From positions 1 through 21,401 of the forward strand of contig WBXG01000029.1 in NCBI GenBank assembly GCA_008932965.1: 21,401 nucleotides of DNA, given 5' to 3'. Of the stretch, positions 171 to 21,401 are shown one piece after another; within the stretch, counting starts at the first letter, position 1, and each line of letters starts with the position of its first letter. This DNA comes from Verrucomicrobiota bacterium (lineage in GTDB: Bacteria > Verrucomicrobiota > Verrucomicrobiia > Chthoniobacterales > UBA6821). Position numbers and translations under genes: made by a program. A model generated the notes under the pieces. The model was given only the letters and a program-made list of their open reading frames with translations, did no database searches and was not told the origin of the DNA.

Positions 171-224
171 CAGCTTGCCTCAAAGTACGATTCAGTATGA
201 AATATGAAGTCTATCCGCATACTA
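171..224 (+). repeat. Decayed junction of the repeat family: right-end remnant (cagtatgaaatatg at 193-206) followed by a deleted left-end remnant (atccgcatacta at 213-224)
   Basis: 171-206 aligns with the right arm/end of full copies ('...cttcccggctttcgtagtagatcagtatgaaatatg'). The string 'ccgcatacta' recurs at 12711-12720, next to a full copy. It lies immediately upstream of the fabD start. Confidence 0.5.
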
Positions 225-228
225 ATTA

Positions 229-1185
229 TTGAATAACCGCTCTATGTCACATCCTCGTACCGCACTCCTTTTCTCTGGCCAGGGAGCTCAAACTGTTGGC
301 ATGGGCCAAGACCTTGCATTCTATTTTCCAACCGCTGCTGCCCTTTTTGAGGAGGCCAACACCTTACTCCAGATGCCTCTTTCTCAAATCATGTTTGAGG
401 GCCCCTCAGAGAAACTAACTCAGACGGCACTCTGTCAACCTGCCCTCTATGTTCATGGACTGGTTTGCCTGGCTTTATTAAAAGAAAAGTTACCTCATCT
501 CAAGTTGCATGCAGCAGCAGGTCTCTCACTTGGGGAATTCACAGCCCATGCAGCTGCGGGAACATTTGATTTTGCAACGGGTTTGAAACTTGTGGAACAA
601 CGAGCCCAATTCATGCAAGAGGCCTGTGAAGAGACCAAGGGAAGCATGGCTGCTATGATCGGTGCCGAAGAAGAGGTTGTCTATCGGCTCGCTTCGGTCG
701 CTGATGTCGATGTTGCTAATTTCAATGCACCTGGTCAAATTGTGATTTCTGGTGACAAGAAGAACATTGCAAAGGCGATTGAATTAGCCAAAGAACATGG
801 CATTCGAAAGGCCATTGAGCTCCAAGTAGCTGGAGCCTTTCATTCGCGTCTTATGAATTCTGCACGCCTGGAATTAAAAATTGTTTTAGAATCCACTCCG
901 ATAAAAACACCCCACATTCCTGTTATCTCCAATATCGATGCTAAGCCGGCAGAATCCCCAGAACGGATTCGTCAAACTCTCGCAGATCAAGTCACTGGTT
1001 CTGTACGATGGAGAGAAACAATAGAATATTTAATCGATGAATGTCAGTGCACCCGTTTCCTGGAGCTAGGACCTGGAGGGATTATCGCTGGACTTGTTAA
1101 TCGCATTCGTAAAGGAACCGAGGTTATTAGCATTTCTGACACAGCCACTCTGGAGGCAGCAGTAGAGATTCTCTCACACTCTTAA
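229..1185 (+). CDS. fabD: Malonyl-CoA:ACP transacylase (FabD)
   Basis: N-terminal 'ALLFSGQGAQ' motif, active-site 'GLSLGEF' (GxSxG nucleophile elbow), 'AFHS' motif, and about 310 aa, typical of FabD. The ORF opens with TTG at 229; an alternative ATG start is at 244. Confidence 0.9.
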   Translation: MNNRSMSHPRTALLFSGQGAQTVGMGQDLAFYFPTAAALFEEANTLLQMPLSQIMFEGPSEKLTQTALCQPALYVHGLVCLALLKEKLPHLKLHAAAGLSLGEFTAHAAAGTFDFATGLKLVEQRAQFMQEACEETKGSMAAMIGAEEEVVYRLASVADVDVANFNAPGQIVISGDKKNIAKAIELAKEHGIRKAIELQVAGAFHSRLMNSARLELKIVLESTPIKTPHIPVISNIDAKPAESPERIRQTLADQVTGSVRWRETIEYLIDECQCTRFLELGPGGIIAGLVNRIRKGTEVISISDTATLEAAVEILSHS

Positions 1186-1213
1186 AAAAGGGGAAGCTCC
1201 TCCTCTCCTTGCT

Positions 1214-2065
1214 GTGATGAGCCTAGCCCGGAATATTCTAGTGCCACCATCCATGAATAATAGAACTGCTCCCTTTTATTTACGCTGCTTTAGTCTCCTT
1301 TCTCTGGATGCTCTTTTGGTGGCACTGGCCTGGCAAGAGGTTTTAGCAGGCGTTAGTGGAGTAGATCTTCACTGGAATGAGAGAGTGCTTTTGGGAAGTG
1401 CAGTCTGGATTGTTTATAACGTGGACCATTTGCTTGATGGGCTTGTTAGCAAAAAATCGACTTACCTTAGCCAAGCACCACGACACACTTTTGTTCAAAA
1501 GCACCCGGGGTTTTTTATTTTCTCTATTGTCATAGCACTCGTTATTGCACTCTCTTTGTTACCGACTATTTCGTTTTCCCTTTGTAAAGGAGGAGCTCTA
1601 CTCGCTTTAGTGACCGGCCTGTATCTTTTTTTCAATTTCCTTCTCCTAGCCCATAAAATCTGGCCTCGAGGCAAAGAGATCATTATCTCCATGATCTTCA
1701 CTCTGGGATGCGGCTTGATTCCTTTTATTCAATCCAACCACAAAGGAGTTCTCTTTTTTTCAATGCTATTATTTTTTGTGATCTGTAGCATCAATTGTTC
1801 CCTCATTGCTCGGTTAGAGCGCGGTGTTCCCATCAAATCACTACTATCACATTTGATGCCTTCCCTATCGTGGACTCTTCCTGTCGCCCTTCTATTACTT
1901 TTAATCAATAATCTAAGCACTCACGCATCCATCATCACTGCATTTTTAGGAAGCCTAATAGGACTCTCCTTGGTGCCTCACATAGCAAAACGGTGTGGCT
2001 ATGAAATGGCCTCACTAGCCGCAGATGGGGCCCTTCTCTTGGGAGCAATACTCTCTTTTTTTTAG
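1214..2065 (+). CDS. Polytopic integral membrane protein, function unknown
   Basis: 283-aa ORF with about 7-8 long hydrophobic segments. It has an 'NVDHLLDG' stretch that only weakly resembles a prenyltransferase Asp-rich motif. No confident family assignment is possible from sequence alone. Confidence 0.5.
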   Translation: MMSLARNILVPPSMNNRTAPFYLRCFSLLSLDALLVALAWQEVLAGVSGVDLHWNERVLLGSAVWIVYNVDHLLDGLVSKKSTYLSQAPRHTFVQKHPGFFIFSIVIALVIALSLLPTISFSLCKGGALLALVTGLYLFFNFLLLAHKIWPRGKEIIISMIFTLGCGLIPFIQSNHKGVLFFSMLLFFVICSINCSLIARLERGVPIKSLLSHLMPSLSWTLPVALLLLLINNLSTHASIITAFLGSLIGLSLVPHIAKRCGYEMASLAADGALLLGAILSFF

Positions 2066-4586: not shown

Positions 4587-4774
4587 TTAACCCGCATATT
4601 TCATACTGGTTCGTCGCGAGGCGCCGTGCAAAGCCTATTAGTACAAGGCGGGCGAAGGATTGCGACTACGGCTGTATGTTTCATACTGCCCCCTCAATAA
4701 CAATTCGAGACCAACGCAGTAATAATGAATTTTGCACAAGCAGTAATAGATTAAGTGTGAAATATGCGGGTTAA
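4587..4774 (+). mobile_element. Palindromic TIR element, subtype 2 (184 nt plus duplicated TTAA), intergenic between rplQ and nadE
   Basis: TTAA at 4587-4590 and 4771-4774. Left end is 'cccgcatatttcatactg' and right end 'gtgtgaaatatgcggg'. The interior 'gaggcgccgtgcaaagcctattagtacaaggcgg' is shared with the copies at ~9759 and 21121. Apical hairpin 'ggctgtatgtttcatactgcc' is at 4679-4699. Confidence 0.88.
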
Positions 4775-4844
4775 TCAAGCAGGGGGCAGTTTCTTTATTT
4801 CTGGCTGCAACTTTATATAAAATGATGTAGGCTAAAAGTTTTCC

Positions 4845-6776
4845 ATGAAAATTGGCATTGCACAGATTAATACAACTGTTGGTGATCTTACTGGTAATGC
4901 CACCTTGATTTTTAATGCGTATAAAGAACTCGTTGCACAAGGAGCTGATCTTGTTATCACACCAGAACTCGCACTTACTGGATACCCGCCACAGGATCTT
5001 CTTTTTTCTGAGCATTTTATTAATGAGAATTTGAAGAGCCTCTCTTCTTTAGAAAAAAAAATTGGAACGGTCCCTCTCCTTGTCGGTTTTGTGGATAAAA
5101 ATAAAAACAGTAAAGGAAAGTCACTTTACAATGCAGCTGCACTCTTGCAAAGAGGAGCCCCACCTTGTGTGGCCCATAAACGCCTTCTCCCTACCTATGA
5201 TGTCTTTGATGAAGCTCGTTACTTTGAGCCCGGCAATCAATCAACCTGCTTTTCATATCTAGGAAAAATCTGGGGAATCACAATCTGCGAAGATCTCTGG
5301 ACTCCCGAATATTTACCTTGTGATCTTTATAGCGTTGATCCAGTTCAAGAACTCATTGTTCAAGGAGCGCAAATTATTTTAAACCTAAGTGCTTCTCCTT
5401 TTCAATTAGGCAAACCGGCACAACGTCTTGCAATGCTACAGGCGCAAGCAGAGCGATTCCAGCGCCCCATTGTCTATTGCAATTCCGTTGGGGGTAACGA
5501 TCAGCTGATTTTTGATGGACATTCCTTAGTCATCAATGCTCAAGGTAATCCCTGCGCTTTTTTTCAAGGATACATCGAAGAAAAAAATGTAATTGACCTC
5601 TCCCTGCCTTCTTATGGAGCAATAGAAACAAAGCGAGCACTCGAAATTTTTAAGAAAATAGATTCGATGCAGGAACTTCACGATGCCTTGGTCCTTGGTA
5701 TTAGGGATTACCTTAGTAAATGCGGCTTGGAACATGCCCTCCTCGGACTCAGTGGTGGTATCGATTCTGCAGTGGTTGCTGCACTCGCTACTGCAGCCCT
5801 TGGTGCAAAGAGAGTCACTGGAATCCTGATGCCTGGCCCCTACTCATCTCAAGGGAGCATTGATGATGCTGTTGCATTAGCCAATAACTTGAGTATCTCC
5901 CACCTCACCCTTCCTATTACTCCACTCTTCGAGGAGGCAAAAAAGAGTTTTCAAGAACCATTTAAACATTTGAAAGAGGACTTAACCCGGATAATTCATA
6001 CTGATCGTGACGAAGAGGCCGCGAAGGCTGATGGGCATCACTGGCGGTCGGAAGACCACGGGGGAGACTGTCGGAGACTTCCTTTAGGTAGCCCTGAAAG
6101 GGCGAGACAAGCAGGAGCGAGCGAGTCAACGCAGGCACGTATTTTGACGCAGGGCTGTATGAGTCCTTACCGCCCAAGTCAAAATGGGAATCTAACGCAG
6201 CATCCATCTAGCTTCCCAGCTTCCGTAGGTGATCGGGATGAAACATCCGGGTTAACTGAGGAAAATCTCCAAGCTCGCCTCCGCGGAGTCACCCTGATGG
6301 CTCTTTCCAACAAGTTGGGAGGCCTTCTTCTCACCACAGGAAATAAAAGCGAACTTGCTGTGGGCTACTGCACTCTCTATGGGGATATGTGTGGTGGTTT
6401 AGCAGTTATTGGTGATGTTCCAAAAACTGTTGTTTATCAACTGGCTCACTGGATCAATCGTGAGAAGGAAATTATCCCTTGGAACTCCATTCAAAAAGAC
6501 CCTAGCGCTGAACTTCGACCGAACCAAAAAGATCAGGACTCCCTCCCTCCCTACGATATTTTAGATAAAATTCTTGAACTGTTCTTAGAAGAAAATCAAT
6601 CTGTCACTCAAATCATGAATCAAGGCTTCGCTAAAAAAACAATCCTTTGGGTTATTCATCAAATTTATCGTAATGAATACAAGCGCCAGCAATCTGCTCC
6701 TGGTTTAAAAGTCACCAGTAAAGCATTTGGCCTGGGCCGACGTTTTCCAATAGCACAGGGTTATATTGAAAAGTAA
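4845..6776 (+). CDS. nadE: Glutamine-dependent NAD+ synthetase (NadE; CN-hydrolase domain plus NAD synthetase domain) carrying a 90-aa in-frame repeat-derived insertion
   Basis: The N-terminus 'MKIGIAQINTTVGDLTGN...PELALTGYPPQDL' is a nitrilase-type glutaminase domain. 'GLSGGIDSAVVAAL' is the PP-loop, with 'TEENLQARLRGVTLMALSN' and 'LLLTTGNKSELAVGYCTLYGDM' downstream. Total length is 643 aa, or 553 aa without the insert at 5982-6255. Confidence 0.9.
   Translation: MKIGIAQINTTVGDLTGNATLIFNAYKELVAQGADLVITPELALTGYPPQDLLFSEHFINENLKSLSSLEKKIGTVPLLVGFVDKNKNSKGKSLYNAAALLQRGAPPCVAHKRLLPTYDVFDEARYFEPGNQSTCFSYLGKIWGITICEDLWTPEYLPCDLYSVDPVQELIVQGAQIILNLSASPFQLGKPAQRLAMLQAQAERFQRPIVYCNSVGGNDQLIFDGHSLVINAQGNPCAFFQGYIEEKNVIDLSLPSYGAIETKRALEIFKKIDSMQELHDALVLGIRDYLSKCGLEHALLGLSGGIDSAVVAALATAALGAKRVTGILMPGPYSSQGSIDDAVALANNLSISHLTLPITPLFEEAKKSFQEPFKHLKEDLTRIIHTDRDEEAAKADGHHWRSEDHGGDCRRLPLGSPERARQAGASESTQARILTQGCMSPYRPSQNGNLTQHPSSFPASVGDRDETSGLTEENLQARLRGVTLMALSNKLGGLLLTTGNKSELAVGYCTLYGDMCGGLAVIGDVPKTVVYQLAHWINREKEIIPWNSIQKDPSAELRPNQKDQDSLPPYDILDKILELFLEENQSVTQIMNQGFAKKTILWVIHQIYRNEYKRQQSAPGLKVTSKAFGLGRRFPIAQGYIEK
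5982..6255 (+). mobile_element. Palindromic TIR element, subtype 1 long form (270 nt plus duplicated TTAA), inserted in frame inside nadE
   Basis: TTAA at 5982-5985 and 6252-6255. Ends are 'cccggataattcatactgatcg' and 'gatcgggatgaaacatccggg'. The interior matches the subtype-1 copies and carries an extra 90-nt module also present in the copy at 12906. No stop codon occurs in the nadE frame. Confidence 0.9.
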
Positions 6777-6782
6777 AATGTT

Positions 6783-7145
6783 ATGCAAGTTCACGGAACA
6801 GAATCTTTCAGTCCAGCAGTTGGGGCATCAGAAAAAAAAACCTTTCCTTCCACCTGGAGTAATGGAGTGAAAGGTAATTTCAATATTTCTTCCTTCCTAG
6901 CACGTTTTAGGATGCCAACTCTTAATTTTGGAATAATGAAAACGTATGAAAATTTCTCACAAAGAATTAAAGATTACTTTGATCCAGACAAGAGCACCAA
7001 TGGTTCCAAAATATCACCAAAGCAGATGATCTCACCAAAGCAGATGAAATTGGTTGAGAAGGTGAAAAGTGCTAATTTTGTTGGACCTGATGATGATGAT
7101 AATTCGATTAAAGTAACACCTTTTAACCCCGAAAACATTTTTTGA
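6783..7145 (+). CDS. Hypothetical small protein (120 aa), weak call
   Basis: An open frame directly after nadE with no recognisable motif. It contains an 18-nt perfect-register tandem duplication (7011-7046) encoding ISPKQM twice. Confidence 0.3.
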   Translation: MQVHGTESFSPAVGASEKKTFPSTWSNGVKGNFNISSFLARFRMPTLNFGIMKTYENFSQRIKDYFDPDKSTNGSKISPKQMISPKQMKLVEKVKSANFVGPDDDDNSIKVTPFNPENIF

Positions 7146-7181
7146 CTCCAATAACCTTCCTATGAAGCATGTACAATTGCT

Positions 7182-7365
7182 TTAACCCGCATATTTCATA
7201 CTGATCGTGATGAGGGGGCAGCAAAGGCTGATGGGGCAAGTCGAGTGATGAAGTCTGACGACGGCTGTATGAGTACATACTGCCCGAGGAGCAATTCGAA
7301 GCTGACGCAGTATCCATCAGTTGTTCGCAAGCTGCAGCAGAATCGGTATGAAATATGCGCGTTAA
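7182..7365 (+). mobile_element. Palindromic TIR element, subtype 1 short form (180 nt plus duplicated TTAA)
   Basis: TTAA at 7182-7185 and 7362-7365. It has the 'cccgcatatttcatactgatcgtga' left end, the 'ggtatgaaatatgcgcg' right end and the apical hairpin at 7263-7284. It lies between the convergent ORF 6783-7145 and msrB. Its right TTAA contains the msrB stop codon. Confidence 0.9.
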
Positions 7366-7925
7366 TCTTTCTTTTGTAAAAATTTTTCTTTTGTCCTAAA
7401 AATCAGCGCTGCAGCATTCAGACAATAACGAAGTCCTGTTGGTGGCGGCCCATCAGGAAAAACGTGACCGAGATGTCCCCCGCACCGAGCACAGAGAATT
7501 TCATCACGTACCATTCCATGCGAAGTGTCATGTTGGGTCACGATATTCTCCGGAGCGTAGGGTTGAAAGAAGCTTGGCCATCCTGTTCCTGAGTGGAATT
7601 TGGAGGCAGAGGAAAAAAGAGGCAAGTCACATCCTGCACAAAAATAAATTCCCTCTTGGTGATTATCGAGGAGGTTACCACAAAAGGGAGGTTCCGTTCC
7701 CCGAGCTCGCAAGATTTTATAGACTTTTTCACCAAGCTCTTTTTTCCATTCCTCATCGGTTTTAACCACACGAGGAACCATGACTACAGGTCCTGGGAGA
7801 CCCTTTAGACCTACGAGCCGTACGGGAACATCGTTTGAAGAAGAATGATTCATGGGAGTAGCAGATTGAGAATGCGATTGGGTTACCACTAAAAAAAGAA
7901 GAGCTAAAAAGAGTATTGGCCTCAT
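7362..7925 (-). CDS. msrB: Peptide-methionine (R)-S-oxide reductase MsrB with N-terminal signal peptide
   Basis: SelR domain: 'CAGCDLPLFSSASKFHSGTGWPSFF' and 'CARCGGHLGHVFPDGPPPTGLRYCLN', with two CxxC pairs and the catalytic Cys. The N-terminus 'MRPILFLALLFLVVTQSHS' is signal-like. Confidence 0.9.
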   Translation of the reverse strand: MRPILFLALLFLVVTQSHSQSATPMNHSSSNDVPVRLVGLKGLPGPVVMVPRVVKTDEEWKKELGEKVYKILRARGTEPPFCGNLLDNHQEGIYFCAGCDLPLFSSASKFHSGTGWPSFFQPYAPENIVTQHDTSHGMVRDEILCARCGGHLGHVFPDGPPPTGLRYCLNAAALIFRTKEKFLQKKD

Positions 7926-7974
7926 AGAAATATTTTTTTAGAATCCATTCCCTATTCTTCTTCTTTAAGCTACT

Positions 7975-9758: not shown

Positions 9759-9946
9759 TTGAGCTTGAATATTTCAAACTAAACTCTCATGAAGCATCGT
9801 ACAAAGCTCATTATTATAAGACGGGTAAGGATAGTCATGCCGGACTGTCTATTTTCCTAATATCCCAATCACAATTCATGACCAACGCAACAACCATAGA
9901 GCTTCCTAGAATCTGTAGAAAATTTAGTATGAAATATCCGGGCTAA
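9759..9946 (+). mobile_element. Palindromic TIR element, subtype 2, degenerate copy (about 188 nt)
   Basis: 'gaatatttcaaactaaactctcatgaagcatcgtacaaagctcattattataagacgg' aligns with the 21121 copy ('gaatatttcatactaaagtgtcatgaggcgccgtgcaaagctcattagtacaaggcgg'). The right end 'agtatgaaatatccgggctaa' ends at 9946. The left TTAA and first TIR bases are mutated. Confidence 0.7.
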
Positions 9947-11118: not shown

Positions 11119-13115
11119 TCATTCCATTTCATTTTAAAATTAGAATGATCATGTTTCGAAAGATACATCTTACCACCCCTTTTTTCTTAGGTATTCTTGT
11201 ACTAGGACTTGGGATCTCCTCTCTGCTAGCTTCCGTGCCCCAAGAAGAAAAAGTAATCACTACTGATGAATACCTTTCTTATCTTAATAGCATCGCCCCT
11301 AGTGATACAGACCACCTCTATGAGCTTAAGATGGGAGAAGGAGCCCACCAAATCCTACGCCTTGGCACTCCAGGAGAGTATTACTATCTTGCCCCTTTAG
11401 AACAAAAGAAAAAGAGCCTGCTGCTCGTTTCCCTTGTAATGTCACAATTCTATTGCGACTGGAAAAATCGAGAAGCATCTGCTTTCTCAAATGAGGTTAC
11501 TATTGAGCAAGACCCCATTTCTGAACGAGAGAAGAGTAACCTTAGAGAAGATTCACAGGTCTTATTGCCCTATCCCAGGAGCACTCACTACGATCCCTTG
11601 CTCTCTTCCAATATTATTATCAATGTCATTTCCCAACTACAGGAAGATCTTGCAATTCCTCAAAACGAAGAAATATCTTGGGATTCATGGGAAATTGGTG
11701 GTACTATTTTGTTAGGATTAGTAGCTTTTGGTGGTGCTTCTAGCTGCTCTCATCCTGTAAGAGAGAGAGAGATCAGAGATGATTCTATTCCATACACGAG
11801 GAATGATCGCCACATTACCTTTGGTAATAATGAAGAGATAATTCACACCAACTCTCATTTCCTGAAAGGAGAAGATAAAATCCCAATTTTGAAAAATCAA
11901 TTGGATGTAAGTGATTCAGAAGATGAAGAAATGCTTCACGTGTTTAAGAATCAGTTGTTTTCAAGACAAATGTATTTAGATCGTGAAGATATCGATGATC
12001 AAGATCTCTTCAATGAGTCTAGCGCTAATATAAGAGTATTAGAAAATCTCCTATCACCGGAAATTCATCATAAATTTTTTAATGGGATCGTTGATAGCAG
12101 AACAATTCAAGAAATCCAAGATCTCATGGCCTCACATCAAAAGATTATTGAATGGACCGAAGATATCAGCATTGACGATCTGAGCATTAATCAACAGACA
12201 CGTAATCTTAAAAAGCTAACCGACTCTACAAAAAAAATTCTCGATACTAAAATGGGAATTCAGATTCATTCGATTCGAGTTGTTGCTGCCTCTTGTGTTT
12301 CAGATCTCATGGATCATGAAGTTAAAAAAGCCACACGAGAAATATTTTATCAGAGTTACTATGATTTGATTTCAAAGAGATATAATCATGCTCACACAAA
12401 CTTTGATCGTTTGAAACAACTCTACTACTTCTGCCAAGAGCATCAGATTCTCCCACTCAAAGAGCTTCAACAACTTGGAGAGCATGCCAATGCCAATAGC
12501 GCTCTTTGCAATAAAGTAGTTAAAAATTTAGAAGAGCTGTCATTCAATCGAGAAGAGCTTCAAGAACAGGATCGATGGTTAGCCCAAGAGACCGATGAGA
12601 TACATGCCATTATTAATGAGATTAAAAAGAAAGAGATCAGTCCAAATAGCATGATCGAACTAGAAAAGATTACTGCCCCCCTCTTAGAGATAAAATCCTT
12701 CAGTGAAGATCCGCATACTAACCCATTAACCCGCATATTTCATACTGATCGTGACGAGGAGGCCGCGAAGGCTGATGGGGCAAGGCGAGTGATGAAGTCT
12801 GACGACGGCTGTATGAGTACATACTGCCCGAGGAAGACTTCGAGCTCAACGCAGCATCTATCTGACTTCCCGGCTTTCGTAGTAGATCAGTATGAAATAT
12901 GCGGGTTAACCCGCATATTTCATACTGATCGTGACGAGGAGGCCACGAAGGCTGATGGGGCACCACCAGCGGTCGGGAAACGGCGGGGGGACTGCCAGAG
13001 ACTTTCTTTAAGCAGCCCTGAAAGGGCGAGACGAGCAGAAGTGAGCGAGTCAACGCAGAGGAGTAGCAGCGAAAGAATAGATGAAGAATCTATACTCGAT
13101 GATGAGCTTCGGTAA
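11115..13115 (+). CDS. Hypothetical membrane-anchored protein whose last ~125 aa are translated repeat elements
   Basis: A long ORF with no motif I recognise. The likely start is ATG 11145 or 11151 ('MIMFRKIHLTTPFFLGILVLGLGISSLLAS' is a signal/TM segment). A second hydrophobic segment is 'GGTILLGLVAFGGA'. From codon ~538 the frame runs through the elements at 12726-13058. Confidence 0.5.
   Translation: MIIPFHFKIRMIMFRKIHLTTPFFLGILVLGLGISSLLASVPQEEKVITTDEYLSYLNSIAPSDTDHLYELKMGEGAHQILRLGTPGEYYYLAPLEQKKKSLLLVSLVMSQFYCDWKNREASAFSNEVTIEQDPISEREKSNLREDSQVLLPYPRSTHYDPLLSSNIIINVISQLQEDLAIPQNEEISWDSWEIGGTILLGLVAFGGASSCSHPVREREIRDDSIPYTRNDRHITFGNNEEIIHTNSHFLKGEDKIPILKNQLDVSDSEDEEMLHVFKNQLFSRQMYLDREDIDDQDLFNESSANIRVLENLLSPEIHHKFFNGIVDSRTIQEIQDLMASHQKIIEWTEDISIDDLSINQQTRNLKKLTDSTKKILDTKMGIQIHSIRVVAASCVSDLMDHEVKKATREIFYQSYYDLISKRYNHAHTNFDRLKQLYYFCQEHQILPLKELQQLGEHANANSALCNKVVKNLEELSFNREELQEQDRWLAQETDEIHAIINEIKKKEISPNSMIELEKITAPLLEIKSFSEDPHTNPLTRIFHTDRDEEAAKADGARRVMKSDDGCMSTYCPRKTSSSTQHLSDFPAFVVDQYEICGLTRIFHTDRDEEATKADGAPPAVGKRRGDCQRLSLSSPERARRAEVSESTQRSSSERIDEESILDDELR
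12726..12909 (+). mobile_element. Palindromic TIR element, subtype 1 short form (180 nt plus TTAA), inside the 3' part of ORF 11115-13115
   Basis: TTAA at 12726-12729 and 12906-12909. It has perfect 25-nt terminal inverted repeats, 'ttaacccgcatatttcatactgatc' and 'gatcagtatgaaatatgcgggttaa'. The apical hairpin is at 12807-12828. Confidence 0.92.
12906..13058 (+). mobile_element. Palindromic TIR element, subtype 1 long form, 3'-truncated, in head-to-tail tandem sharing one TTAA with the preceding copy
   Basis: It matches the nadE copy from the left TIR through '...agccctgaaagggcgagac.agcag.agtgagcgagtcaacgcag', after which homology stops at ~13058. No right TIR is present. Confidence 0.85.
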
Positions 13116-14006: not shown

Positions 14007-14066
14007 GAAAAATAGGACTTCAACAGATAATATTATCAAAAATATTTTTTAAGGTTCCAGAAAAAC

Positions 14067-14087: not shown

Positions 14088-14115
14088 TCAACGTTCGATC
14101 TTGTGCATTGAATTT

Positions 14116-14364
14116 ATGAATGAAAAAAAATCCCCTTTACCCACCTCTATTGAATCTGCATTAGAGCGATTGGAAACAATTGTGAACACCATTGAAACAA
14201 CACCACCTCCACTGGAGACCTTGATTAATCGTTATGAGGAGGGAGTAGCTCTTTTAAAATTGTGCCAAGAAAAATTAACCACAGCAGAGCAACGCATTGA
14301 TATTATTTCGCGAAATGCTCGGGGTGAAGCTTCATTAAAGCCATTTGATTCAACAGTCGACTAA
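14116..14364 (+). CDS. xseB: Exodeoxyribonuclease VII small subunit
   Basis: 'LESALERLETIVNTIE....LETLINRYEEGVALLKLCQEKLTTAEQRIDII' is the typical XseB helical hairpin pattern, and about 80 aa fits. It lies upstream of dxs as in many bacteria. The ATG is at 14116; the track ORF opens at TTG 14101. Confidence 0.8.
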   Translation: MNEKKSPLPTSIESALERLETIVNTIETTPPPLETLINRYEEGVALLKLCQEKLTTAEQRIDIISRNARGEASLKPFDSTVD

Positions 14365-14525
14365 GCCGCTCTCTCAATATTAGGAGCGAGAAGAAAAAGG
14401 ACTCACTAAAGATAGGGCTTGTGACCTGTGGCAAATTATAAAATTATCTTCTACTTGCCAGCACGACTTTTCATTTTCATGACTCATTTCCTAGCAGCGC
14501 CCCTTTACTGACAAAGAAATCGAGG

Positions 14526-16430
14526 TTGTTATTTTTTATTGTGAGCCAACCTAACTTCATCGATTCACGAGATGCACTGCATGCGTTGCCAGAGGCCGAT
14601 CTCCCTGCATTAGCGGAAGAAATCAGGCAAGAACTCATCACCTCACTTTCACAGACAGGAGGCCACCTCGGACCTAACTTGGGAGTTGTAGAATTGACCA
14701 TTGCCCTTCATCGCGTCTTTAACACTCCCGATGACAAGCTTCTTTTTGATGTCAGCCATCAAGGTTATATTCATAAAATGCTCACGGGTCGTCGTGATCG
14801 CTTAGCAACCATTCGCCAGCATGGGGGACTTAATGGATTTTTATTACGCAGCGAAAGTGAGCACGATTGTTATGGTGCAGGACATGCTGGAACAGCTCTT
14901 TCAGCAGCACTTGGAATGGCTGCAGCACGGGATCACTACCATGGGAAAGAGCATGTGGTAGTCGTGGCTGGTGACGCCGCTTTTACTTGTGGCTCCAGCT
15001 ATGAAGCCTTAAATAATGTAGCGGCTACCACACAACGTCTCATTGTGGTTTTAAATGACAACAAATGGTCGATTGCTAAAAATACCGGAGCGATTGCTCA
15101 ACATTTTAATCGTATTACCACAAGCCCTGCTTACGCTCATCTTCACGAACAAGCGGCTAAATTTGTAGAATGGATTGGTGGAAAAAGAGCTCGTCATCTC
15201 GCTCACAAAATAGAGACGAGTTTTAAACAAATCCTTTTACCTAGTGTCATTTTTGAAAACCTAGGTCTTCGATACTATGGCCCTATTGATGGCCACAATA
15301 TTCCACTACTCATTCGGACCTTTGAATTTCTTAAGACTCAGCAAGAGCCTGTTATTCTCCATATTTTAACAGAAAAAGGGAAAGGCTATGCCCCTGCTAT
15401 TGCTAAGCCTGATAAGTTTCATGGACTTGGAAAATATCAACCTGAAACCGGAGAGACCGATATTGCAGCAACCCCCACCTACTCTGAGATCCTTGGGAAA
15501 TCACTCTCTACTTTTGCCGATCAAGACCCATCACTCGTGGCTATCACAGCTGCTATGCCGGATGGAACAGGTTTAATACATTTTTCCAAGCGGCATCCTA
15601 ACCGATTTTATGATGTTGGTATCGCTGAAGGTCACGCTGCACTTTTTGCAGCAGGGATGGCAACACAAGGAATGAAGCCGTTCCTAGCTATCTATTCAAC
15701 CTTTATGCAGCGGGCTTTTGATATGCTTGTCCACGATATTGCACTTCAAAACCTCCATGTTAATCTCTGCATGGATCGGGCTGGACTCTCCGGAGATGAT
15801 GGCCCAACACACCATGGCCTTTTTGACATTGCCTATCTACGCGCTATCCCCAATGTGATTCAAATGCAGCCCAAAGATGAGGAGGAATTTGTTGATATGC
15901 TCTGGACGATGTCCCAGGCTAAAAAAGGATTGATGGCTATTCGTTACCCTCGGGGAGCAGGCACTGGAGCGATTCCTAAAAAAAATCCTCAGCTTCTTTC
16001 CATCGGTCATGCAGAAGTACTACTCGAGGGAAAAGATGTGGCTCTTTTTGGATTAGGAAATTTTTGTTCAATAGCGCAAGAAGTTGCTCTTTTACTTGCT
16101 GCACACGGCATTGAGGCCGCTGTCATTAATCCTCGCTGGATTAAACCACTTGATACAAAAACTCTTTCTCTCTTTGCAAAAAAAACGAATTTGATTGTTA
16201 CACTAGAAGATCATGCTCTTCTTAATGGCTTTGGAACTGCAGTTGCTGAGCATCTTGAAGATGAGCAGATAAAAACGCCCCTCGTCCGTATCGGCTGGCC
16301 AGATCAATTTATTGAGCATGGATCTCTCCCAATTTTACGAAAAAAATATGGCCTCACCCCAGAGGCAATCGCAGAAAAAATCCTCTCTTTTTATAATTCA
16401 CTCCCTTCGTCCAGCAAGAGCCTTGAATAG
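14526..16430 (+). CDS. dxs: 1-deoxy-D-xylulose-5-phosphate synthase
   Basis: 'GGHLGPNLGVVELTIALHRVFNTPDDKLLFDVSHQGY', the ThDP motif 'GDAAFTCGSSYEALNN...LNDN' and 'GIAEGHA...DRAGLSGDDGPTHHG'. The start is uncertain, either TTG 14526 or GTG 14541. Confidence 0.95.
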   Translation: MLFFIVSQPNFIDSRDALHALPEADLPALAEEIRQELITSLSQTGGHLGPNLGVVELTIALHRVFNTPDDKLLFDVSHQGYIHKMLTGRRDRLATIRQHGGLNGFLLRSESEHDCYGAGHAGTALSAALGMAAARDHYHGKEHVVVVAGDAAFTCGSSYEALNNVAATTQRLIVVLNDNKWSIAKNTGAIAQHFNRITTSPAYAHLHEQAAKFVEWIGGKRARHLAHKIETSFKQILLPSVIFENLGLRYYGPIDGHNIPLLIRTFEFLKTQQEPVILHILTEKGKGYAPAIAKPDKFHGLGKYQPETGETDIAATPTYSEILGKSLSTFADQDPSLVAITAAMPDGTGLIHFSKRHPNRFYDVGIAEGHAALFAAGMATQGMKPFLAIYSTFMQRAFDMLVHDIALQNLHVNLCMDRAGLSGDDGPTHHGLFDIAYLRAIPNVIQMQPKDEEEFVDMLWTMSQAKKGLMAIRYPRGAGTGAIPKKNPQLLSIGHAEVLLEGKDVALFGLGNFCSIAQEVALLLAAHGIEAAVINPRWIKPLDTKTLSLFAKKTNLIVTLEDHALLNGFGTAVAEHLEDEQIKTPLVRIGWPDQFIEHGSLPILRKKYGLTPEAIAEKILSFYNSLPSSSKSLE

Positions 16431-16561
16431 GATAAGTAGAGAATTTTTTTTACAGAGATCATGACTCACTTCTTTTCATAAGGCTTTTGTAATTCTTATT
16501 GCCGTTAAGCCACTTTTACTTTAGAAATCACACTCCCCATTTTTAAAATCCCTAGTCATTT

Positions 16562-16780
16562 ATGAATTCTCAAATTATCGAGCAAGCCTCACAAGTTGTC
16601 CCCAACAAACAACTCCTTATTAATATGGTTAGCAAGCGTGTGCGTCAGCTCATGGCAGGTAGTCGTCCTTTGATTGACAATTCTTATAACATGGGACTTG
16701 CTGATATTGCTCTTTCAGAAATTGCTGCAGGTAATGTTTCTATCTTAAATTTACTCTCCGAGAAAGACACCCTGGAATAG
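16562..16780 (+). CDS. rpoZ: DNA-directed RNA polymerase omega subunit
   Basis: 72 aa. 'NKQLLINMVSKRVRQLMAGSRPLI' and '...IALSEIAAGNV' match the RpoZ consensus pattern (N.y.L...a.kRarqL..G..p ... iAl.Ei..g). Confidence 0.7.
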   Translation: MNSQIIEQASQVVPNKQLLINMVSKRVRQLMAGSRPLIDNSYNMGLADIALSEIAAGNVSILNLLSEKDTLE

Positions 16781-16836
16781 TCGATCGACTCCTATCGCAG
16801 TAGGAGCATTATAGGCCGGTCCATTTTTGAGTTCTT

Positions 16837-17307
16837 ATGAGCGCTGATATCGTACTGAATCGAAAAGCGCTTCGTGATTTTGAAATCTGTGATCGTGTAG
16901 AGGCAGGTATTTCTTTGCTAGGGACAGAGGTGAAATCAATTCGCAACGGCCATGTTGATCTACTTGGTGCTTTTGCTCGAGTCGAGAAAAAAGGGGTTTT
17001 TCTCTATGATGCAACGATTCAGGCCTATGCCCAGGCAAGTCACGAAACCCATGATCCCAAGCGCCCCCGCATGCTACTTCTCCATAAAGGAGAAATAAGT
17101 CGCCTAGCAGAACAAACCTTACGCCATGGCCGAGCACTACCGGCACTCCGACTTTATTGGAAAAAAGGAAAAGTCAAAGTGGAGATAGGCATTGGTAAAG
17201 GAAAAAATGCTGGTGATAAACGGCACGATTTGAAAAAGAAAGATGCTGATCGTGAAATGAAACGAGAGGTTGTCCGATTTGAGAAAAATCACAATCTCAA
17301 GCGCTAA
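16837..17307 (+). CDS. smpB: SsrA-binding protein SmpB
   Basis: '[10 protein letters not shown]....[17 protein letters not shown]', '[16 protein letters not shown]' and a basic C-terminal tail '[24 protein letters not shown]' are classic SmpB features. Confidence 0.92.
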
Positions 17308-17363
17308 TTTTTGATCACTTTTGTATCATTGATGTAGAATCGAATGACTGGGATTATAAAAAC

Positions 17364-17957
17364 ATGCTCCTCCTGATCGATAATTACGATTCTTTCACCT
17401 ATAACTTAGTTCATTATTTTGGAGAACTTGGAGCAGAGCCACTGGTGGTGCGGCACGATAAGATCACTCTTGAAGAGGTTCAGGCGCTCCGACCAAATTC
17501 TCTCTGCATCTCCCCTGGACCAGGAAGGCCTTCCGATGCGGGTATCAGCAAGCAGCTTATTGAATCATTCAGTGGAATAATCCCCATCCTAGGGGTCTGC
17601 CTCGGTCATCAATGCATTGCGGAAGTTTTTGGAGGGGAGATTATCCAAGCTTCAAGACTGATGCATGGAAAGACCTCTTTAATACACCATGATGGAAGCG
17701 CACTTTTTCAAAATCTTCCAAATCCTTTTTCAGCAATGCGCTATCATAGCCTCTTGGTACGACGGGAAACATTCCCATCATGCTTAGAAATCAGCGCAGA
17801 AACAGAGGAGGGTGAAATCATGGCACTTCGTCATCAGGAATTTCCACTCTGGGGAGTTCAATTTCATCCTGAGTCTATTTTAACCCAGGAGGGAAAACTA
17901 CTACTCAGAAACTTTTTGAAGATAAGCGCTCCCAGACCCAGCGTATTACAAAACTAA
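17364..17957 (+). CDS. Glutamine amidotransferase component II of anthranilate / aminodeoxychorismate synthase
   Basis: '[17 protein letters not shown]', the catalytic 'GVCLGHQCI' and 'GVQFHPES' mark a class-I GATase of the TrpG/PabA type. TrpG and PabA cannot be told apart from sequence alone. Confidence 0.85.
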
Positions 17958-18903
17958 GATCCTCAACACATGCAGCGATGAGGTTTGGGAGCCTTGAAAT
18001 ACCAAAGGAGCCCCCAGCAATATTGAGATAGAGTGCTGCAGTAAAACGAGCATGATCTTTTTGAATCAAGATATTTTCTCGTAACAATGGATAGGATAGC
18101 TTGCGATACAATTCCCAAAAGGCTGTTTGCTTAGTAGGGAAACGCCAACCTTGCAAAAGAGCTCGTTCTTGTTGCGAAAGATCCTCTCGAAAAATTTCTT
18201 CAGCCAAGCGCTCCGAGATGATCGAAATTTCTTGAAGCGTCTGCTGTTGATTTTTCTGGGACAAAGAATGAGATAAATGTCGATAGCAGATCAAGCGCTC
18301 TGAGAGATTTTTTGTTTCATATCCACCAGCCATGAGTCTACCCCAAAGATCGTAATCTTGTGCAATGTGATAAGTGGCATCGTACCCTCCTAGGAAGCGC
18401 ACAATATCTGTTTGAAACAAAACAGAGGTATGTAAAAAAGGATTCGCTATTGGTGCGCTCCAATAAATGACCTCCTGTCGTAAAGGAACATCCAATAACC
18501 CAACAAGACGATCTAAGGAATCAATCATGAAACCACAACTGCCTACTAATGCCAGAGTCGGATGGTGTGAAACACAATTCATTTGCTGCTCCAAGCGCGT
18601 TGGCAAAGAGAGATCATCTGCATCTTGCCTAGCAGTCCATTTTCCACGGACCTCATTGAGACCTTGATTCAAACAGGCTGTTTGGCCTTTGTTGACCTCA
18701 TTTTGAATCACTCGAATACGTTGATCTTTCCATGCATACTCTTGTGCAATCTTCACTGAATCATCCGTTGATGCATCATCAACAATTAAAAATTCCCAAT
18801 CGCTGAATGTCTGGTGAGAGATACTCTCAATTGATTTTGCTAAATATTTTTCTGCATTGAAAACAGTCATCAAGACAGAAACAAGAGGTGGAGGTGGCTT
18901 CAT
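17905..18903 (-). CDS. Glycosyltransferase family 2
   Basis: '[42 protein letters not shown]' and the 'RQDADDLS' DxD region. The start ATG at 18903-18901 overlaps the upstream stop (ATGA). The track ORF N-terminal extension to 18963 is rejected. Confidence 0.85.
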
Positions 18904-20015
18904 AAAGGAATTCTGCGGTTTCTTAGTAGAGAGATAAAAATCTCTTGGTGCCTGGCTACCCAACGCTTTTGGTCAAAGAGAGCCTCTGCACGAATTCGTG
19001 CAGCATAGGCGTAGGATTCAAAATGAGGAACTATTTTTAAAACACCTTTTGCTAAGGCTGCTCCGGTCGGTGTGATCATTTGACTCCAATCAAGCGGCGC
19101 TGGAATTAACACCCCTGACTCTTCATCAACAAGCTCCAGAAGACCTCCAGAAGCAGATCCAACAACAGGACATCCCGAGGCTAATGCCTCCAAAACAACC
19201 GTAGGACACGGATCGAGATATTTTGGATGAAGCACGATGTGATGAGATTGATAAAGCCTTACTGCCTCTCCTTGACTGAAGGGAGGCAGAAGAGTCACGC
19301 GTGCAGTGAGTCCAAGACGTCCTATTTCACGCTTCACTAATGCGACCCCTTGAGGCCATTCACATTTTCCAGCGATTGTTAAAACAGCATCGCATCCAGC
19401 ATCAACTAAATTTTTCAAACACTCCAATGTTGAAAAAACACGTTCAGCATAACCATGGGTGCCAAGAGTCAAGAGGCGTAGTGGAGAGAGTGGAGGACGT
19501 ATGGGTGAAGGAAAATAAGTACCAAGATCAATCGGATTAAAAAGAATTTCACTGGGTGCTAAGCAGGGCCCTAAAAAAAACTCTGCTGACTCCCGACAAA
19601 AAGCACTTTGATAAATGACATAATCTGCCAATGCTCGCAATCGCCTCATCGGAGCATTATGACCCTCCGTTCCCTCCCCTGCCCATGCAGGATACCCTAC
19701 TCCATTTTGATTCCAAACGAAGATCATTCCGCAGCGGCGTGCCTTCTTAACGAGGTCCTGGGAAAAGGGAGGTTGAGCACTGCTCACCAAATAGAGAATG
19801 TTGCTTTTTTTTTCATTGATTGAAAAAGCATCACGTAATGCAAGAAGCTTGACTGCTCCACCATGAATAACAGTACGGTTTTCTAAAACTCTCCCTAAAG
19901 CTAGTATAGGCTCTGAGGCATTGGAATGTTCCACCTCACGTCGTCTCCACCAAAAAAAAAGTCGCTTTGGAAAAAAGAAACAGCGACGCATCAACGATAA
20001 AAAAAACATCTTCAT
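18900..20015 (-). CDS. Glycosyltransferase, GT-B fold (GT4 / group 1)
   Basis: The C-terminal 'PTVVLEALASGCPVVGSASGGLLELVDEESGVLI' is the E-x7-E nucleotide-sugar binding region of GT4 enzymes. The ATG at 20015-20013 overlaps the epimerase stop (ATGA). Confidence 0.8.
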   Translation of the reverse strand: MKMFFLSLMRRCFFFPKRLFFWWRRREVEHSNASEPILALGRVLENRTVIHGGAVKLLALRDAFSINEKKSNILYLVSSAQPPFSQDLVKKARRCGMIFVWNQNGVGYPAWAGEGTEGHNAPMRRLRALADYVIYQSAFCRESAEFFLGPCLAPSEILFNPIDLGTYFPSPIRPPLSPLRLLTLGTHGYAERVFSTLECLKNLVDAGCDAVLTIAGKCEWPQGVALVKREIGRLGLTARVTLLPPFSQGEAVRLYQSHHIVLHPKYLDPCPTVVLEALASGCPVVGSASGGLLELVDEESGVLIPAPLDWSQMITPTGAALAKGVLKIVPHFESYAYAARIRAEALFDQKRWVARHQEIFISLLRNRRIPL

Positions 20016-20929
20016 ACAAGCAGTTTTCTAATTTCTTCTAGAATATTTTTCTGAGGCTTCCATCCTGTAAGTTTAGAAAATTTCGAAGAGTCGATGCAAG
20101 AATGAGCTACATCCCAAGCGTAGCGTTCATGGTATTGAACCGACAAAACAACATTCAATGCCTGCTCTACTGCAAGTGCTAATTCCAAGATAGAAAAATT
20201 GTTCCCTGAACCTATATTAAAAATACCACTAGTTGGTAGGCTTAAAGCCGCTTGTAAGGCGGAGAGAAAATCATCGATCCAAAGGTAATCCTTACTACAA
20301 CGGCCGTCGCCCCAGATTGTGACCGTTTCTTGCGTGTTTGCTGCTGCAATCATGCGAGGAAGAATTCCCTGTGGATATTTTGGGTTAGAAAGAAAACCAA
20401 GAACATTAGTAATCCGTAACAAAATAGGCTGGAATGAAGAGTCCTCCTGGGAGGCCTTAAGAATCATTTCTTCTGCTAGCAACTTATTCTGAGCATATCG
20501 ACTGATAGGACGAGTAGCACCTTGTTCTGTCACGGGCTCTTCTACGGTATTTCCATAGACGGAGGCAGAAGAAAAAAATAAAAATCGAAGTTTCTTTGCT
20601 TCTTTTGAAGCAAGCCTTGCAGCCTCTAATAACTTTTTTAAAAGCGGTATATCTTCACGCTCCTCACGCCCAGGATCCTGCTCGCTTATAAAAGGAACGG
20701 TGCTCCAAGCAGCATGAATCACTGAATCAAAAGTGGCCATTACCACAGGATCCAAAAGGTCATTGAGTTTTTGAAACTCCTCTCCCCCTGTACGCGAAAA
20801 AAGAACAACATCGTATCCTGCATTATTCAGAAAATTGGCTACAAGACCTGCTAATCGACCACGTCCGCCGGTGATTGCGATTCGACTTGGAGCCTCTTGT
20901 TTTTTTAATGTTTCAGAAGATATTTTCAT
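20012..20929 (-). CDS. NAD-dependent epimerase/dehydratase (extended SDR)
   Basis: 'IAITGGRGRLAGLVANFL' is a Gly-rich Rossmann motif, 'SRYAQNKLLAE' the YxxxK catalytic motif, and 'NIGSGNNFSILEL' is also present. The start is taken as ATG 20929-20927 ('MKISSETL'). The 49 upstream codons of the track ORF are antisense translation of the repeat element. Confidence 0.8.
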   Translation of the reverse strand: MKISSETLKKQEAPSRIAITGGRGRLAGLVANFLNNAGYDVVLFSRTGGEEFQKLNDLLDPVVMATFDSVIHAAWSTVPFISEQDPGREEREDIPLLKKLLEAARLASKEAKKLRFLFFSSASVYGNTVEEPVTEQGATRPISRYAQNKLLAEEMILKASQEDSSFQPILLRITNVLGFLSNPKYPQGILPRMIAAANTQETVTIWGDGRCSKDYLWIDDFLSALQAALSLPTSGIFNIGSGNNFSILELALAVEQALNVVLSVQYHERYAWDVAHSCIDSSKFSKLTGWKPQKNILEEIRKLLV

Positions 20930-20940
20930 GAGCAGCAGAC

Positions 20941-21124
20941 TTAACCCGAATATTTCATACTGATCGTGACGAGGAGGCCGCGAAGGCAGATGGGGCAAGG
21001 CGAGCGATGAAGTCTGACGACGGCTGTGTGTATACACACTGCCCGAGAAAGACTTCGAGATCAACGCAGCATCCATCTAACTTCCCGGCTTCCGCAGTAG
21101 ATCGGGATGAAATATTCGGGTTAA
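20941..21124 (+). mobile_element. Palindromic TIR element, subtype 1 short form (180 nt plus TTAA), 11 nt upstream of the epimerase start codon
   Basis: TTAA at 20941-20944 and 21121-21124. Ends are 'cccgaatatttcatactgatcg' and 'cgatcgggatgaaatattcggg'. The apical hairpin 'ggctgtgtgtatacacactgcc' is at 21022-21043. Confidence 0.92.
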
Positions 21125-21401
21125 CCCGAATATTTCATACTAAAGTGTCATGAGGCGCCGTGCAAAGCTCATTAGTACAAGGCGGAAGAAGGATTGTGAC
21201 GCCGGTCTGTAGGAGTCCCTACTGCACACGTCAAAATGGGGGTTTTTGTGATAATCACTCTATCATATTTCCTGAATGAATTTTTATGAGATAGGGTGGT
21301 CCTTTGATAGGACTAAAATTTGACTCCTAAACTCCAGAAAATATTTTGACTCATGAGGTCTTGATTTCCTGCTGCTGCATTGTAGAAGAATGAAGTATCC
21401 C
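21121..21401 (+). mobile_element. Palindromic TIR element, subtype 2, sharing a TTAA with the preceding copy; either a long variant running off the window or a truncated copy
   Basis: Positions 21121 to ~21242 align with subtype 2 copies ('catgaggcgccgtgcaaagctcattagtacaaggcgg...'). 'gtcaaaatggg' is shared with the nadE long form. The last bases, 'ttgtagaagaatgaagtatccc', resemble the right end of the 9759 copy ('ctgtagaaaatttagtatgaaatatccggg'). The interior from 21243 to ~21370 is unmatched. Confidence 0.6.

Follow-up and report, generated by a model that had tools for sequence, protein, structure and literature searches.

What is the short palindromic repeat that recurs throughout one contig (21.4 kb) from a Verrucomicrobia MAG (hereafter the window, meaning the whole analysed stretch of 21,401 nucleotides), and which enzyme moved it? 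A sequence-only reading of this DNA had placed one repeat family at nine sites, and all nine were present at those positions (Table 1): six full-length copies, of which one is heavily degraded, two copies cut short and a single terminal remnant. Together these copies cover 1,492 nt, or 7.0% of the contig, against about 8% in the earlier estimate.

Repeat copies in the window

The three short subtype-1 copies (7182-7365, 12726-12909 and 20941-21124) are each 184 nt long, as had been claimed, and the inverted ends also stand, the 25-nt TIR (TTAACCCGCATATTTCATACTGATC) being perfectly inverted in 12726-12909. Where copies abut they have a single TTAA in common, at 12906-12909 and again at 21121-21124, in agreement with the first description. 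The subtype-2 copy at 4587-4774 gave nhmmer E-values of 5e-55 to itself and 4e-27 against the type-1 HMM, whilst the remnant carries an exact 14-nt TIR match at 193-206, with no HMM match over the rest of 171-224; such exact 14-nt matches number six in the window and zero in 100 shuffles. The right end of the truncated copy at 21121-~21244 is absent also from the longer contig L176. Several copies touch the coding sequences around them: the right TTAA of copy 7182-7365 provides the stop for msrB on the minus strand (ORF 7362-7925), and a hypothetical ORF (11115-13115) continues in frame through copy 12726-12909 close to its C-terminal end. Some gene callers run the epimerase ORF on into copy 20941-21124.

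Table 1 Copies of the repeat family in the 21.4-kb window, with positions counted from its first nucleotide.
Feature	Position	Strand	Size, flanks and match	Context
Right TIR remnant	193..213	+	CAGTATGAAATATG then diverged sequence	Inside 171-224
Complete subtype-2 copy	4587..4774	+	188 nt, 180-nt core, TTAA/TTAA	rplQ-nadE gap
Complete long copy	5982..6255	+	274 nt, 266-nt core, TTAA/TTAA	In frame within nadE
Complete subtype-1 copy	7182..7365	+	184 nt, 176-nt core, TTAA/TTAA	
Degraded full-length subtype-2 copy	9759..9946	+	Flanks TTGA/CTAA; E=4e-11	gpsA-ABC ATPase gene gap
Complete subtype-1 copy	12726..12909	+	184 nt, TTAA/TTAA, perfect 25-nt TIR	
Long-type copy, 3' end truncated	12906..13058	+		In-frame read-through, as in preceding copy
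Complete subtype-1 copy	20941..21124	+	184 nt, TTAA/TTAA	Directly upstream of minus-strand epimerase gene
Truncated subtype-2-like copy	21121..~21244	+	Left end only	

Target site and spread across Chthoniobacterales

As the sequence-only reading had presumed, the family extends beyond this locus, and it lies on many contigs of at least four Chthoniobacterales MAG species. The surveyed loci, about 600 kb in all (8-kb windows picked around MITE copies), yielded 105 complete copies, and the matches listed include more than 88 stretches, with dozens of contigs per MAG. Most frequent is a 176-nt core with 4-bp flanks (the core is exactly 176 nt in 45/105), cores span 176-374 nt, below the limit of about 600 bp usual for a MITE, and the only open frames are read-through frames of 60-124 codons, with no Pfam transposase. 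Subtype-1 copies share a mean pairwise identity of 76%, and conservation within the element is highest at its ends (52 copies). An apparent class of 97-nt mini elements was an artefact, the element centre carrying a TIR-like motif.

YTAR stands on both sides of 89 of the 105 copies, and the left and right flanks are identical in 66 (TTAA in 51, CTAG in nine, CTAA in four and TTAG in two). The two flanks of a copy go together more often than chance would allow (chi-square p=6e-9; Fisher p=5e-6 and 7e-8), and in 62 copies outside the TTAA-containing search pattern CTAG occurred 33 times, TTAA 28 times, CTAA 17 times and TTAG 15 times. The flanks are true target-site duplications and the target is YTAR (TTAA, CTAG, CTAA, TTAG); the earlier proposal of a duplicated target holds, whilst its restriction to TTAA does not. 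Duplication of TA only, as in IS630-like elements, is out, since the first and last flank bases also match between left and right and co-vary within a site. The TIRs, the matched 4-bp flanks, the dispersal and the lack of a transposase gene all bear out the suggestion of a non-autonomous, MITE-like family.

IS1380-type ends and the search for a transposase

The family is no orphan: its ends agree with those of IS1380-family insertion sequences. At the MITE end, the first 14 nt (CCCGNATATTTCAT) agree at 14/14 positions with the consensus of 104 IS ends, a set taken from elements that a search returned as relatives of an IS1380-type transposase. On a Pseudomonadales chromosome, a truncated PF13701 (IS1380-type) transposase is accompanied by the end AGTATGAAATATTCGGG+TTAA, whilst 52 metagenomic IS1380-family elements of 1559-1663 bp have the end consensus CCCG[G/C/A]ATATTTCAT; the two intact transposases checked among the metagenomic IS elements matched NF033539 at E about 1e-120. 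L131 and the L076 remnant are identical to the MITE end over 17/17 nt, and the right end of L105 over 21/24. The named element ISPosp7 reads CTAG followed by CCCGCATATTTCAC, 13/14 identical to the MITE end, ISPa33 and ISMaq4 read CTAG followed by CCCGGATTTCTCATGA, and all three have CTAG/CTAG flanks. Both 4-nt flanks were YTAR in 42 of 47 IS copies, and a large IS1380 clade, including ISPosp7, targets YTAR. The MITE thus has the same terminal sequence (CCCG.ATATTTCA.) and the same 4-bp YTAR flanks as ISPosp7, ISPa33 and ISMaq4, but elements of that type are 1.56-1.66 kb long with a transposase of about 440 aa (NF033539), whereas those of the window are 176-266 nt and encode none, and the MITE favours TTAA (its host is AT-richer) whilst IS copies mostly have CTAG.

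Because YTAR-flanked MITE ends are identical to IS1380-family ends, we conclude from the sequence comparison that the family is very probably a MITE of IS1380 type, moved by an IS1380-family transposase encoded elsewhere, and that the ends name the likely mobilising enzyme. IS1380 transposases act on sequences merely resembling their own inverted repeat (PMC9330008). The sequence shared with 83 IS loci by blastn was the TIR only, with none of it internal, and the closest true parent IS may just be unsampled. In the mechanism we propose, an IS1380-family DDE transposase, encoded elsewhere, would bind the TIRs of roughly 17-25 bp (CCCGNATATTTCATACTGATC) and insert the element at the tetranucleotide YTAR, where a staggered cut would duplicate the four bases. 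Such a transposase, in or visiting these Chthoniobacterales genomes, would have done the moving, presumably in a cut-and-paste reaction by analogy with the related piggyBac.

PiggyBac has ends ttaaCCCTAGAAAGATA and TTAA as its exclusive target (PMC3078864), and published work pairs the piggyBac superfamily with IS1380-like elements (PMC5718144). It has a TTAA/CCC junction at both ends, as does the MITE (TTAA/CCCG at most window copies); the MITE differs from piggyBac in occurring in bacteria, in a target relaxed to YTAR and in that the associated enzymes are of IS1380 type, not piggyBac type.

The longer, TIR-bounded element with a transposase, for which the sequence-only reading had suggested a search, was not found in the surveyed loci: long TIR-to-TIR spans considered as autonomous elements (L054, L007, L011, L057, L066, L060 and L079) hold ordinary host genes between separate copies, and nothing links a PD-(D/E)XK 'Rpn' protein in L054 to the element. 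That the window has no transposase ORF was borne out by Pfam scans and by tblastn with IS1380 transposases, and gene calls with Pfam matches revealed none in near-identical contigs. No IS1380 transposase gene was found in about 700 kb of Chthoniobacterales DNA, drawn from fragmentary MAGs and loci around MITE copies, and in a full-length transposase search none of the best 120 of >8000 database relatives is named as Chthoniobacterales. MAGs tend to lose insertion sequences. Protein searches with transposase fragments and MITE peptides returned only proteins of similar length, with no full-length parent and no host proteins, and all-against-all clustering of 826 locus ORFs gave the MITE peptide itself as the sole multi-copy 'protein'. 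Plasmid and phage collections contained no MITE match, and 13 single matches in viral contigs had no YTAR flanks or transposase and were at chance level for 16 specified bases. The family also matched no known RNA family, as had been supposed: Rfam with permissive filters returned only sub-threshold miRNA hairpins, the best, a plant miRNA hairpin model, scoring 32 bits against a threshold of 90. We found no earlier description of the family in Rfam, two annotated collections or the full-text literature, and no prior report of an IS1380-linked MITE in the full-text literature.

The closest copy pairs are always from the same MAG but on different contigs. Such pairs, 95-98.9% identical, occupy different loci in single MAGs and have different duplications (for example, L063 and L081, from one genome, are 98.9% identical yet flanked by TTAA/TTAA and CTAG/CTAG, respectively), which points to recent transposition in at least three lineages. 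Lineage-specific insertions were also seen in a block syntenic with SMAG_U8253, and each lineage has amplified the family separately. The pairs argue against the copies being relics, that is, products of past transposition now subject only to decay and homologous recombination, with no active partner left. We consider the relic reading unlikely but still worth weighing: no transposase was found in the same 700 kb, subtype-1 identity is only 76% on average, among insertions from 7182 on (the part of the window represented in related contigs) all but the pair 12726-13058 occur in each >99% identical strain, and the nadE copy is retained by each full-length member of its cluster. At 12726-13058 the variation itself stems from recombination. 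Strains >99% identical carry a 274-nt long form as the allele of copy 12726-12909, and an apparent empty allele at 12726 proved to be a recombinant of two adjacent copies, not a never-filled site. Close strains showed no clean filled-versus-empty polymorphism, for which the sequence-only reading had suggested a look; recombination of these neighbouring copies accounts for the one polymorphic site.

Insertions in genes and persistence of the family

The nature of the target would explain where copies persist. Of the 105 copies, 27 coincide exactly with the stop codon of an ORF 100 codons or longer, compared with 3.1% of all YTAR sites. YTAR holds a stop (TAA or TAG) on both strands, and insertion at a gene end would restore the stop and be harmless; this regeneration of the stop by target duplication would lead to a pile-up of copies at gene ends. 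A further 13 copies (about 12%) lie in frame inside long ORFs, the identified hosts being NadE, a class A PBP, a PMT glycosyltransferase, PyrF and a BCAA permease. The nadE copy (5982-6255) was correctly read as in frame: it adds exactly 90 codons and splits the NAD_synthase domain (Pfam) into two stretches, and the ortholog in another MAG lacks exactly these 90 residues. This insert is kept in 8/8 cluster members of at least 90% identity, seven of them full length at 643 aa. Where TTAA or CTAG is itself translated, a single frame (TTA-ACC-CG.) is permitted, and in that frame the element is free of stops on either strand; the added length is usually a multiple of three. With a stop-free frame and the usual addition of 180 or 270 nt, genic inserts can survive as 60- or 90-residue peptides. 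If the IS1380-type enzyme excises seamlessly like piggyBac, in-frame inserts in essential genes would be reversible.

The whole element forms one predicted hairpin (-101 kcal/mol, z=-10.9). Two-sided changes occur in 22 of 43 pairs against 13.1 in shuffles (0/500 attain 22), covariation scores 0.247 compared with about 0.06 for slid partners, and the forward strand folds better in 51/52 copies. We also saw a weak same-orientation bias among copies, which together with this strand asymmetry lies outside the predictions of a simple DDE model. On the same premise of seamless excision, the orientation bias and the better folding of one strand would suggest a single-strand or replication-linked step; to our knowledge, none is known for the IS1380 family. 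A target with a stop on both strands, a multiple-of-three length, a frame open either way and a conserved hairpin would make most insertions non-lethal, though it is doubtful that the family is adapted to live inside genes as a bacterial counterpart of piggyBac MITEs.

The whole-element hairpin with its paired arm changes and better-folding forward strand, a consensus open in frame 0 on both strands, and an insert kept in 7/7 full-length NadE relatives (at least 90% identity) could also mean that the host keeps the element for a function, as a 3'-end RNA hairpin or an RPE-like peptide module, and does not just tolerate it. We regard this as improbable. At stop-codon sites copies lie at random in either orientation with respect to the upstream gene (11 same, 15 opposite), in-frame inserts, as read from the peptides, occur in both orientations (7 vs 6), no U-tract follows the hairpin, and the correlated arm changes may derive from a few subfamily founders. 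Selection for the double open frame is likewise unconvincing, as 23% of palindrome-preserving shuffles are open on both strands and the open frame is lost on both strands in 36/105 copies.

Ends of the IS5 type typically begin with GG or GA, not CCC, whilst the terminal 14 nt of the MITE equal the consensus of the IS1380-relative ends and are shared at 13/14 positions with ISPosp7. It is very improbable, then, that the family is a MITE of another YTAR-targeting group (the IS5 group or IS701) and not of IS1380, although members of both likewise make 4-bp duplications at YTAR and the target alone does not tell them apart. That the copies are local segmental duplications or assembly artefacts is refuted and merits practically no credence: metagenome assemblies do break at repeats, and contigs L001 and L002 end before 4587, but every copy is differently flanked, assembly was independent in many samples and MAGs, the boundaries are exact with TIR and duplication, and the reading frames of conserved genes are intact.

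As an IS1380-type MITE, the family behaves like the Correia, ERIC and RPE elements to which it had been likened, without belonging to them, its ends being of the IS1380-family type. Correia/NEMIS (Neisseria) and ERIC (Enterobacteria) elements are likewise 100-200 bp, with inverted ends, hairpin potential and many copies near genes; Correia elements duplicate TA and have a different TIR sequence, ERIC is not known to have such a target, and neither is known to have IS1380-type ends. RPEs are short palindromic repeats found in frame in unrelated housekeeping genes, to which they add a peptide (PMC10969869). The MITE resembles them in lying in frame within NadE, PBP, PyrF and a permease, but this resemblance is one of behaviour only: its host is Verrucomicrobia, its TIRs are clear, it makes a defined duplication of YTAR and can be assigned to an IS family, and only about 12% of its copies are in-frame genic.

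Until now an orphan, this repeat abounds in uncultured freshwater Chthoniobacterales, where it breaks assemblies and spawns spurious 'hypothetical proteins' and ORF extensions; it now has a name and a likely enzyme. That enzyme would belong to the IS1380 family, a prokaryotic relative of piggyBac that plays an important part in how resistance genes spread. Besides the Rickettsia RPEs, the MITE family provides a second natural system in which to study how essential enzymes tolerate inserts of 60-90 residues.

Repeat copies in the window and in related genomes

A repeat search recovered every site of the repeat family proposed by the sequence-only reading, and an HMM built from 52 copies returned the same sites (see table). 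Three copies are exactly 184 nt long including both TTAAs, and where two copies abut they have a single TTAA in common, both as previously described. The terminal-repeat 14-mer has six occurrences in the window, against none in shuffled sequence. All copies combined cover 1,492 nt (7.0%) of the window, against the earlier estimate of ~8%. No transposase is present among the window ORFs, in line with the earlier reading, and comparison with Rfam gave nothing at or near threshold for the family. All copies from 4587 to 21244 lie in the same orientation, on the plus strand. Relatives of the window are labelled Verrucomicrobiae or Chthoniobacterales, and proteins identical to its own are present in lake metagenomes.

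Copies of the repeat family in the window
Position	Length (nt)	Form	Basis
193-206, within 171-224		Remnant	Exact 14-nt terminal-repeat piece
4587-4774	188	Copy	Repeat search and HMM
5982-6255	274	Copy	Repeat search and HMM
7182-7365	184	Copy with both TTAAs, on the msrB stop codon at 7362-7365	Repeat search and HMM	
9759-9946		Degraded full-length copy	Repeat search and HMM
12726-12909	184	Copy with both TTAAs	Repeat search and HMM
12906-13058		Truncated copy	Repeat search and HMM
20941-21124	184	Copy with both TTAAs	Repeat search and HMM
21121-~21244		Truncated copy	Repeat search and HMM

Scanning one genome for each species turned up at least 88 stretches matching TTAACCCGNATATTTCATACT, so the family is not a local duplication of this locus. 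Among the matches listed, nearly all are in four Chthoniobacterales ('Spartobacteria') MAG species, namely Kiruna_bin-02438, Tobar2m-G38, SMAG_U8253 and Deming_bin.170. Some 600 kb of fetched DNA contained 105 complete copies; in 45 of them the core measures exactly 176 nt, with a subtype-2 group of 178–183 nt and a long group of 257–281 nt. Copies were also found on ~2-kb contigs of unrelated MAG bins, complete in L019 (56-321, Planctomycetia) and L064 (1690-1956, Burkholderiales), and in L009 (Opitutus MAG); these contigs are probably mis-binned Chthoniobacterales DNA, alternatively the element may have been transferred between lineages. A second dispersed repeat of ~118 nt, unrelated to this family, with ends TAGACTTCTTTCCAAA...TTTGAAAGAAGTCTA and apparent TA flanks, lies in frame within nadE of SMAG_U8253 (locus L058, 4955-5080) and recurs in loci L046, L035, L080, L078, L016 and L052, and is absent from the window.

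Target duplication and insertion sites

The earlier proposal that TTAA is a duplicated target stood as regards the duplication but not as regards TTAA being the only target. With no flank imposed on the search, the tetranucleotide outside each end was TTAA, CTAG, TTAG or CTAA (YTAR); a YTAR lay on both sides in 89 of 105 complete copies, and the left and right flanks were identical in 66 (TTAA 51, CTAG 9, CTAA 4, TTAG 2). The search pattern favoured TTAA, and 62 copies not selected by it served as a check, their flanks being CTAG 33, TTAA 28, CTAA 17 and TTAG 15. Left-right agreement is far above chance (chi-square p = 6e-9), for the first flank base (Fisher p = 5e-6) as for the last (7e-8); duplication of TA only was rejected, as it would leave the outer and inner bases of the flank without this co-variation. 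The clearest example is the pair L063 and L081, two loci of one MAG whose copies differ at 2 of 176 positions, yet are flanked by TTAA/TTAA and CTAG/CTAG respectively. At the 67 insertion sites whose two flanks are identical (loci L003-L090 plus the window), G is enriched at -3 to -1 and C at +1 to +3, resembling the element's own GGG|YTAR|CCC junction; in the same loci, 13 junctions are copies abutting on a common duplication.

Of the 105 copies, 69 add a net length divisible by three, and 13 are internal in-frame inserts in long ORFs. The identifiable hosts are NadE, whose NAD_synthase domain is split by the insert, a class A penicillin-binding protein, with the insert separating its two domains, a PMT-type glycosyltransferase, OMP decarboxylase and a branched-chain amino-acid permease. 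The insert is kept in all seven full-length (643 aa) NadE relatives of at least 90% identity. In 27 of the 105 copies the insertion coincides exactly with the stop codon of an ORF at least 100 codons long, the duplication regenerating the stop; stop codons of this kind account for just 3.1% of the YTAR sites present in that DNA. With its TTAA, the subtype-1 consensus is stop-free solely in frame TTA-ACC-CG., on both strands, the two orientations reading LTRIFHTDRDEEAAKADG... and LTRIFHTDLLRRPGSQMD..., respectively. This is the sole usable frame at a coding TTAA or CTAG, because TAA or TAG is a stop in the third frame and the terminal inverted repeat (TIR) has TGA in the second. Plain shuffling gave a double open frame in 2.7% of cases, and shuffling that preserved the palindrome did so in 23%; we therefore do not claim selection for it. 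Since open frames continue from host genes into the element, gene calls are split: the minus-strand epimerase frame (20012-21076) is called as 354 or 305 aa and that of MsrB (7362-7925, minus strand) as 187 or 139 aa. Intergenic copies are called as 49–107-aa 'hypothetical proteins' in public MAGs. With respect to genes, the family behaves like the Rickettsia RPE.

Hairpin structure, amplification and recombination

The whole element is predicted to fold as one long imperfect hairpin (consensus -101 kcal/mol, z = -10.9), with standard pairs in 93.7% of pair cells across 52 copies. Both-side changes occur in 22 of 43 pairs, whereas shuffling gives 13.1 and none of 500 shuffles gets as high as 22, and the covariation score in the 52 copies is 0.247 versus about 0.06 with partners slid, though these counts tally sequences rather than events and a few subfamily founders could yield the same. 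The forward strand out-folds its complement in 51 of 52 subtype-1 copies, for example 12730-12905 (means -84 vs. -69 kcal/mol), because mismatches are G-U and not A-C; despite this advantage, orientation relative to neighbouring genes is random. Adjacent copies across all loci share orientation in 50 pairs and oppose in 29 (p = 0.024), a bias unlike the expectation for a simple DDE element. The subtype-2 loop motif GCTGTATGTTTCATACTG agrees with the terminal repeat in 13 of 17 positions (e.g., ~4672-4689, and 5407-5423 in locus L013); a class of 97-nt 'mini' copies was rejected, as this motif gave half-elements that appearance.

Mean pairwise identity among subtype-1 copies is 76%, which makes the family old. 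The closest pairs are 95–98.9% identical and always come from different contigs of the same MAG with unrelated flanks, a sign that each genome has amplified its copies recently. Just one block is syntenic with another species (L058, SMAG_U8253), and it has no insertions in common with the window: it lacks the nadE copy, and it alone carries one between msrB and plsY.

Contigs of strains >99% identical to the window carry three alleles of the 12726-13058 region. That of the window pairs a short copy with a truncated long one, the second has a complete 274-nt long copy where the short one would be, and the third has just one copy. The last was considered as a never-filled site and rejected, as it arose by recombination between the two neighbouring copies. 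Copies therefore still recombine with one another, and the clean evidence for transposition is the flank duplications (e.g., L063/L081), not this locus. The other window insertions covered (7182 onward) are present in every >99% strain spanning them. A 174-nt in-frame indel (58 codons, 11993-12159) in a hypothetical protein, unrelated to the family, also separates >99% identical strains.

Probable relationship to IS1380

No transposase was found between paired ends or elsewhere in the fetched loci, nor a partner transposase in Chthoniobacterales (~700 kb of host DNA; best 120 transposase relatives). In L054 (1908-2819), a PD-(D/E)XK 'Rpn-type putative transposase' (PF12784, E = 9e-40) lies with host genes between two element ends, and was rejected as the element's own gene, with no sign of belonging. 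A complete Pseudomonadales chromosome (L076) carries a truncated transposase gene (PF13701, E = 1.6e-37) ending in AGTATGAAATATTCGGG then TTAA, this being the MITE end in the correct place and orientation relative to the gene. Metagenomic relatives yielded 52 elements of 1559–1663 bp with both ends present, and two intact transposases checked match NF033539 'IS1380 family transposase' (E about 1e-120). The consensus of the 104 element ends, CCCG[G/C/A]ATATTTCAT, agrees with the MITE's first 14 nt at every position, and YTAR flanks both sides in 42 of 47 IS1380-family elements. Two metagenomic elements extend the match, to 17 nt at an end of L131 and to 21 of 24 at the right end of L105, with no similarity between the MITE and sampled IS elements beyond the TIR. 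Named plasmid-borne elements follow this pattern too, reading CTAG|CCCGCATATTTCAC (ISPosp7) and CTAG|CCCGGATTTCTCATGA (ISPa33 and ISMaq4). Eukaryotic piggyBac, with which IS1380-like elements are paired in the literature (PMC5718144), has ends ttaaCCCTAGAAAGATA and targets exclusively TTAA (PMC3078864), whereas the MITE target is YTAR. In L091 (1183-1668), from a relative of that Pseudomonadales strain, the IS1380 remnant is itself interrupted by a putative ISL3-type transposase gene, recognised by eye.

Full-text literature searches turned up nothing that ties MITEs to IS1380 or deals with Chthoniobacterales repeats, and a 2024 review of prokaryotic MITEs mentions neither IS1380 nor TTAA. The sequence-only reading was essentially right in seeing a real non-autonomous, MITE-like family with a duplicated target; these repeats are a MITE family, unreported in that literature, which ends and target place with IS1380. 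IS1380 transposases also act on sequences merely resembling their inverted repeat (PMC9330008), and it is thus plausible that an IS1380 transposase mobilises the MITE in trans via the 14–17-nt end match.
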